IMG/VR virus record: IMGVR_UViG_3300042335_000796
Span: 27,524-91,523 of that record
DNA: 64,000 nt
DNA from: a virus
Direction: 5' to 3' (one strand)
The notes beneath the pieces are model-generated. The model was not told the origin of the DNA. It worked only from the letters and a program-made list of their open reading frames with translations, and did not search any database. Shown piece after piece: positions 48,069-48,317 of this stretch. Made by a program: the position numbers and the translations under genes. Within the stretch, counting starts at the first letter, position 1. Every line of letters begins with the position of its first letter.

Positions 48069-48266
48069 TTAGGCTGGAGTTGATAATTCTGCGATTCTGT
48101 TGTAACAACCCCTAATTTGAAAGGTATATACAACCCCAGATGTCAGGTACACCTCGGCATCACAGTTGTAACAACCCTTAATTTGAAAGGTATATACAAC
48201 GGTGGCAGCAATACAAGCCAAGGAAAAAGAGTTGTAACAACCCTTAATTTGAAAGGTATATACAAC
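48069..48266 (+). CRISPR. Orphan CRISPR mini-array: three 36-nt repeats and three 30-nt spacers
   Basis: Repeat GTTGTAACAACCCTTAATTTGAAAGGTATATACAAC at 48099-48134 (1 mismatch), 48165-48200 and 48231-48266. Spacers at 48069-48098, 48135-48164 and 48201-48230. Confidence 0.95.
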
Positions 48267-48317
48267 CAACAAGCAAAACCTAAAAAAATAAACGAATAAA
48301 AAACTAATTAAACGATA

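Follow-up and report, generated by a model that had tools for sequence, protein, structure and literature searches.

A phage-borne mini-array of type VI-B-like CRISPR repeats upstream of a GOLLD RNA

The DNA analysed here, a window of 64,000 nucleotides, comprises bases 27524-91523 of a 91.5-kb virus record in IMG/VR. Baseplate-wedge, Hoc-like and SbcC-like proteins are encoded, and the completeness of the record was put at 31% by CheckV. [quoted passage not shown] The host of this large phage is probably a member of the Bacteroidota. A close relative was sought via a neighbouring 366-aa protein, and none was found.

The locus consists of a leader, a short array of 36-nt repeats and a giant structured RNA of the GOLLD class, all on the same strand (Table 1). 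The genes upstream of the array are those for a DUF192 protein, a small ORF and an SLT-domain protein (opposite strand). No tRNA genes were found in the window by ARAGORN. A few kb from the RNA operon, positions 52840-53589 (+) of the window encode a 249-aa protein with a poly(A) polymerase/CCA-adding head domain (Pfam PF01743, E = 2.9e-16). Long 63-nt tandem repeats with TRF scores of 299-491 are found at 62256-63811, and are consistent with the leucine-rich-repeat gene family noticed in the first-pass annotation, which had been made from the letters of the window.

Table 1. Features of the array locus, in window coordinates.
Feature	Position	Strand	Remarks
Promoter-like copy 1	47711-47761	+	TTG, 20 nt, TAACTTTG (Bacteroidota-type -7 box); in silico only
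Promoter-like copy 2	47822-47872	+	86% identical to copy 1
boxA-like motif GTTCTTTGAAA	47888-47898	+	recurs in six host VI-B leaders
Structured leader RNA	47899-48036	+	138 nt; three hairpins and a four-way junction, predicted
Anti-repeat, two blocks	48036-48068	+	48036-48044 pairs with 48119-48127; 48057-48068 pairs with 48099-48110
Loop of the leader-repeat hairpin	48069-48098	+	30 nt; guide part of an extraneous crRNA or former spacer (S0); GC 0.40
Repeat 1	48099-48134	+	variant, C at 48112; pairing with the leader predicted to sequester it
Spacer 1	48135-48164	+	30 nt; GC 0.57; internal hairpin predicted
Repeat 2	48165-48200	+	
Spacer 2	48201-48230	+	30 nt; GC 0.47
Repeat 3	48231-48266	+	
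A-rich linker, without terminator	48267-48327	+	A-rich tract up to about 48320
GOLLD RNA	48328-49107	+	3' domain 48707-49107 = Rfam RF02032; 5' half inferred from similarity to the LR745206 GOLLD
First intrinsic-terminator-like site downstream of the array	49488-49517	+	

The array contains three repeats with a start-to-start distance of 66 nt, which leaves spacers of exactly 30 nt. Repeats 2 and 3 have the same sequence, from which repeat 1 departs by one base. Three exact or near-exact 36-mers at such a fixed distance are far beyond chance, and no further copies of the repeat were found elsewhere in the 91.5-kb record. The first-pass annotation had described 36-nt repeats with fixed 30-nt spacers, a variant copy at the promoter-proximal end and an A-rich tract on the promoter-distal side of repeat 3; the coordinates (48099-48266 for the array, 48267 to about 48320 for the tract) agree on all three points. 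It had also held that each spacer is complete in both possible readings. The spacer-repeat reading, which is that of type VI-B, does give three full units, but if the units are read repeat first, the last of them runs out into the linker. The 5' GTTG and 3' ACAAC ends of the repeat are predicted to pair with one another, and an outer stem of 6 bp and an inner stem of 4 bp are predicted, on which the T-to-C change in repeat 1 has little effect. The GC content of the spacers, including the 30 nt at 48069-48098, is 0.40-0.57 compared to 0.27 for the window. The repeat was sought in IMG/VR and in the JGI metagenomes in both exact and degenerate form; there were no matches and hence no strain variants.

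A resemblance of the repeat to those of type VI-B arrays in the Bacteroidota had been suggested at the outset. To place the repeat, 185,579 species, represented by one genome each, were scanned with the 25 positions given in the first-pass annotation fixed and the others free. The scan returned 25 loci, every one of them in the Bacteroidota and with a periodicity of 66 nt (36/30 geometry), and those of F. columnare and F. covae (L010 and L019) were among them. The consensus repeats of these loci are identical to the phage repeat at 27-32 of 36 positions, the best being those of a Flavobacteriales MAG (L016), of Rurimicrobium arvi (L017) and of a Bacteroidales MAG (L020). All seven of the large adjoining ORFs that were tested match the NCBIfam Cas13b model NF038190, with scores of 563-930 bits. 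By tblastn, an effector, ie Cas13b or a divergent Cas13b-like protein, is present in the available flank of 14 of the 25 loci, and these are all 14 for which there is upstream flank. The remaining 11 are without upstream DNA; three of these genomes were checked and all hold an effector. Cas13b is present in the genomes of both L017 and L020. Neither Cas12 nor Cas9 was found beside the scanned repeat loci. No effector of type V or type II adjoined any of the loci, and the phage repeat is to be assigned to the type VI-B (Cas13b) class of the Bacteroidota. The suggested resemblance is thus upheld by the genome scan, with 25 of 25 loci in that phylum and Cas13b as the neighbour; best matches in type V loci, which would have spoken for the opposite, were looked for and did not appear.

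At every host locus the effector (cas13b) comes first, followed by the leader and then by the array, on the strand that gives the repeat as GTTG...ACAAC. Host spacers are 29-31 nt long. The T-to-C variant of repeat 1 is also present in three host arrays (L021, L028 and L017), and the predicted fold energy of the phage repeat is close to that of the L016 repeat. The leader and the variable end of the host arrays are transcription-upstream and proximal to the effector, and a truncated terminal repeat lies downstream (also PMC8092290, PMC13187072). The idea that the A-rich, promoter-distal end of the phage array is its growing end is therefore unsupported, since the host VI-B leader is on the transcription-upstream, cas13b-proximal side, and the A-rich tract is better read as a linker. 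Gaps of 96-146 nt were observed between otherwise regular repeats in four of the host arrays (L027, L019, L018 and L009), and probably correspond to the long or interrupted repeats known from earlier work on VI-B. Cas13b is rare among Bacteroidota: it was found in three of 401 sampled genomes, and two of those three had been sampled as already-known holders.

At L016, the protein directly upstream of the array has 1109 aa and scores 39 bits with the Cas13b model, compared to a cut-off of 150 bits. The family of about 1110 aa to which such proteins belong aligns over 79 columns with a Cas13b profile (hhalign probability 93%), and R-x4-H motifs are found close to either end. The family is a divergent Cas13b-like effector, and the repeat nearest to that of the phage is one of its repeats. 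The two members, at L034:1159-4488 (-) and L015:1180-4524 (+), lie directly upstream of VI-B-type arrays and have 51% mutual identity.

None of these effectors accompanies the phage array. Cas13b (NF038190), the divergent Cas13b-like protein and Cas1 were all absent from the 91.5-kb record, as was a TNB domain of the Cas12f/TnpB type, and there is no cas13b beside the array, its neighbours being DUF192, SLT and small ORFs. With no cas13b adjoining it, the locus counts as an orphan array whose repeats are of the VI-B class and does not qualify as a VI-B locus, and it has the features of a virus-borne cas-less mini-array, ie it is short, without cas genes and with repeats of a host class. As regards adaptation, the acquisition of spacers in trans through the Cas1 of a II-C system, to which the first-pass annotation had appealed in suggesting that the phage array may use host adaptation machinery, holds for F. 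columnare (PMC8092290). Three small ORFs near the array were used in a PDB sequence search for a known anti-Cas13b protein, with nothing relevant found. To our knowledge, only one protein inhibitor of Cas13b has been described.

The array might instead serve a Cas13b, or a divergent relative of it, that is encoded by the phage itself in the approximately 69% of the genome lying outside the record. A completeness of 31% leaves room for such a gene, huge phages do carry effectors (PMC7162821), and divergent Cas13b-like effectors, which score weakly with the NCBIfam model, adjoin arrays of this kind. Nevertheless, the effector is immediately upstream in 14 of 14 host loci with flank, a place taken here by DUF192, the small ORF and SLT; the 91.5 kb give no match; and type VI effectors are reported to be uncommon in viruses (PMC12607003). 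We consider a phage-encoded effector improbable.

The leader contains a partial fourth element at 48033-48068, which ends exactly 30 nt upstream of repeat 1. Taken as a direct repeat, it is identical to the 3' half of the repeat at 15 of 19 positions; taken as an anti-repeat, its last 12 nt and the first 12 nt of repeat 1 are exact reverse complements of each other. It can be read in these two ways because the ends of the repeat are palindromic. Compared to the 3' end of the repeat itself, these 12 nt are changed at three positions, and each of the changes creates complementarity to repeat 1. An RNA of 102 nt (48033-48134) is predicted to form a long hairpin of -29.3 kcal/mol (z = -4.9), and none of 200 shuffled sequences folded as well. 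When 180 nt of leader are included, the mean probability of pairing between repeat 1 and the leader is 0.65, compared to 0.25 for shuffled leaders, of which two in 200 reach 0.65, and pairing within repeat 1 falls to zero. The same calculation gave values of 0.61-0.72, as in the phage, for the leaders of five host loci (L008, L010, L013, L016 and L019) and no signal for five others (L007, L009, L023, L025 and L028). In VI-B arrays, a leader-repeat hairpin blocks the binding of Cas13b and so prevents the formation of an extraneous crRNA (ecrRNA) from the leader and repeat 1 (Migur et al. 2026, PMC13187072). The folding predictions suggest that the phage anti-repeat is such an intramolecular VI-B leader-repeat hairpin and not a tracrRNA; the anti-repeat thus speaks for VI-B and not against it.

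The leader ends of the host arrays differ among themselves. At five loci (L028, L012, L021, L018 and L009) the first repeat is degenerate in its 5' part and intact in its 3' half, and lies 29-30 nt before the first full repeat. Other host arrays have an anti-repeat 6-8 nt upstream of the first repeat. The impression is one of two distinct solutions for the leader end. In the phage, a former terminal repeat may have been reshaped into the anti-repeat, with a former spacer (48069-48098) trapped as the loop.

The first-pass annotation had seen a conflict between the VI-B-like array and an upstream scaffold resembling those of type V. If the folded leader and the anti-repeat served a type V (Cas12f-like) or type II effector as a guide scaffold akin to a tracrRNA, both the 20 nt complementary to the repeat and the strongly folded 138-nt RNA upstream of them would be explained. 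However, those relatives of the repeat that have enough flank all adjoin Cas13b and never Cas12 or Cas9, the anti-repeat belongs to the same transcript as the array and precedes repeat 1 by 30 nt, in the geometry of the VI-B hairpin (PMC13187072), and the record contains no TNB domain of Cas12f or TnpB. A search of Rfam at E <= 10 over 47700-48720 gave no match to a tracrRNA, a tRNA or a credible CRISPR-DR. A scaffold for a type V or type II effector is scarcely credible, and the conflict dissolves once the anti-repeat is taken as a VI-B-like leader-repeat hairpin. The statement that type VI-B needs no tracrRNA holds according to PMC13187072.

Further upstream lie the two promoter-like copies, which constitute a 51-nt direct repeat family (D2). 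The motif TANNTTTG showed no enrichment in the window as a whole and was for that reason dropped as a host signal. A boxA-like 11-mer, either GTTCTTTGAAA or GCTCTTTGACA, occurs 104-153 nt upstream of the first full repeat at six Cas13b loci (L007, L010, L012, L019, L021 and L028), which come from different families. It is the sole similarity between the phage and host leaders that was found by local alignment, and about 0.06 such matches would be expected by chance in the sequence searched, by rough uniform-base arithmetic. By its likeness to elements in CRISPR leaders and rRNA operons, GTTCTTTGAAA at 47888 may be read as a putative boxA antitermination element. The segment between this motif and the anti-repeat has a minimum free energy of -43.7 kcal/mol (z = -6.3), which was equalled by none of 200 shuffles, and local alignment found no counterpart of these 138 nt in the host VI-B leaders. 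Its four-way junction, at about 47976-48034, is cloverleaf-shaped; it was rejected as a recognisable tRNA, neither ARAGORN nor Rfam having given a match.

Downstream of the array, RF02032 matches 48707-49107 with a score of 311.7 bits (E = 2.5e-88). The similarity to the GOLLD of LR745206 starts at 48328, ie the array ends about 60 nt before a giant RNA of approximately 780 nt, and no terminator was found on the + strand between the two. In LR745206 the slot upstream of GOLLD is taken by two tRNAs. A motif scan provided 72 further viral GOLLD loci (L037-L108). There are tRNA genes upstream in 27 of them, often tRNA-Gln, and many of these tRNAs end about 800 nt before the conserved 3' motif; the corresponding distance for repeat 3 of the phage array is 779 nt. 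A weak periodic repeat was found at only one of the 72 loci, among which the array-GOLLD junction appears to be unique to this phage.

These distances bear on a further explanation, in which the array would be a relic or have been put to another use: it would have been captured from a host and have no CRISPR role, or it would act as punctuation that sets the 5' end of GOLLD, as the upstream tRNAs may do. The frequency and spacing of the tRNAs, their presence in the array's slot in LR745206 and the small number of repeats, only three, are in keeping with this. On the other hand, near-identical repeats, exact spacing and an anti-repeat with a perfect 12-mer and a block of 9 bp are unlike decay, and punctuation by Cas13b would still need loading of the host Cas13b. 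We regard a relic or a mere punctuation signal as distinctly improbable.

No target was found for any of the spacers in INPHARED (blastn) or, with up to 10 mismatches allowed, in the phage record itself. Seed searches for all three spacers, the leader stretch S0 being the third, in IMG/VR and for spacer 1 in the JGI metagenomes were likewise negative. At up to three mismatches, spacer 1 had no match in 401 Bacteroidota genomes and spacer 2 none in 101. BLAST of all three spacers against 401 Flavobacteriales genomes gave no convincing target; the best match, 23/25 with a gap in two related genomes (E = 0.02 per genome), was judged to be due to chance. The reverse comparison, of 248 spacers from host VI-B arrays with the phage record, gave no convincing match, and a 24/30 match in a GTT-repeat region of the phage was rejected as low complexity. 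Most of the environmental diversity of phages and hosts is unsampled, and the absent matches are therefore weak evidence.

The most economical reading of the locus, and the most likely one, is that Cas13b of the host matures the array transcript into two crRNAs. The tandem promoters would drive a single untranslated transcript containing the leader, the array and GOLLD, which boxA would guard against premature termination. The 3' end of the leader would sequester repeat 1, so that no leader-derived crRNA is made, and the host Cas13b would bind repeats 2 and 3 and cut at their 3' ends. The expected products are two phage crRNAs of 66 nt, the first made up of spacer 1 and repeat 2 and the second of spacer 2 and repeat 3, and the cut after repeat 3 would free the downstream GOLLD RNA. 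Abundant guides of this kind, which have no detectable target, could compete for a limited pool of Cas13b, and RNA-targeting immunity against the phage would be blunted. With somewhat better than even confidence, we conclude that the locus is a cas-less VI-B mini-array of a Bacteroidota phage, whose guides, matured by the host Cas13b, would compete with the host crRNAs. Against this reading, the closest repeat found is identical at only 32 of 36 positions, so that the fit with a particular Cas13b is presumptive, and the rarity of Cas13b in the sampled Bacteroidota genomes likewise weighs against it.

Competition with the host guides is favoured, and its main rival is retargeting, ie the use of the guides as a weapon which aims the host Cas13b at transcripts of a rival phage, a mobile element or the host, with collateral RNase activity and dormancy as the outcome, by which rivals would be excluded or the host manipulated. 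Other viruses or genes of the host are frequent targets of virus-borne mini-arrays and of the compact arrays in huge phages (PMC7162821), the spacers here have their full length of 30 nt and a foreign composition, and the retention of a hairpin that blocks a useless leader-derived crRNA suggests selection for real guides. Indeed, a pure decoy would have no need of a hairpin by which one of three possible guides is suppressed; such a hairpin suits an array that is optimised for real guides or that came from a host not long ago. Against retargeting, no protospacer was found in any of the collections searched. Competition is preferred for three reasons. A non-targeting spacer-repeat RNA supplied in trans cut Cas13b defence about 1000-fold (PMC13187072), the non-specific RNA degradation that follows activation of Cas13b would also damage the phage replicating in the same cell, and spacer 1 has a predicted self-fold, a poor property in a targeting guide. 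Retargeting is accordingly thought unlikely. The competition reading can be extended to an RNA counter-defence against Cas13b, the first natural repeat mimic of type VI, wired into a GOLLD operon, in which Cas13b is saturated with inert guides and at the same time frees GOLLD, replacing the processing of tRNAs. This extended version is possible, but we offer it as a tentative one.

Some parts of this picture are known already: huge phages have cas-less arrays whose repeats resemble those of hosts, and RNA mimics of repeats act as anti-CRISPRs; the viral survey of such repeat mimics was without type VI. If the full leader logic of VI-B works in the phage, the locus would offer a natural example, open to direct testing, of a phage that supplies an RNA-targeting effector with guides, and a processing signal would adjoin the giant RNA GOLLD.

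Compared to host VI-B arrays (F. columnare, F. covae and the VI-B2 array of Porphyromonas gingivalis; PMC13187072, PMC8092290), the phage array shares the repeat length of 36 nt, the GTTG...ACAAC ends, the inner CCCTT/AAGG hairpin, the 30-nt spacers and the spacer-repeat reading, and it has a boxA-like motif in the leader and a predicted hairpin over the first repeat. It differs in being phage-borne, in having three repeats only and in the absence of cas13b or csx27/28 nearby. Its anti-repeat is 30 nt upstream of repeat 1 rather than the 6-8 nt of host leaders, it has an additional structured leader segment of 138 nt, and it runs into a GOLLD RNA.

For the compact cas-less arrays with host-like repeats in huge phages, the use of host Cas proteins has already been proposed (Al-Shayeb et al. 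2020, PMC7162821). The array described here resembles those in being short, in having repeats of a host class and in lacking genes for interference and adaptation. Type VI is absent from that set, however, and the present array keeps the complete leader logic of the host type and is fused to a structured RNA of giant size. The most fitting label for it is that of an orphan phage mini-array with repeats of the VI-B class.

Solitary viral repeats act as RNA anti-CRISPRs (Racrs), for which repeat units of every type except type VI have been found (Camara-Wilpert et al. 2023, PMC10651486). By analogy with these, a repeat mimic encoded by a phage behind a promoter and without cas genes would be expected to sequester the effector. 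Unlike the Racrs, which are solitary repeats, this is a regular array of three repeats and a partial fourth with full spacers, which the Racr pipeline would discard as an array, and the mimicry of the repeat is at the level of the class (32/36). The ecrRNA of VI-B provides the precedent for competition between guides, since it too is a non-targeting spacer-repeat RNA that competes for Cas13b, and its overexpression in trans led to the approximately 1000-fold loss of Cas13b defence (Migur et al. 2026, PMC13187072). In that case a host-derived RNA had been overexpressed by design, whereas the phage array would, by analogy, supply such competitors naturally.
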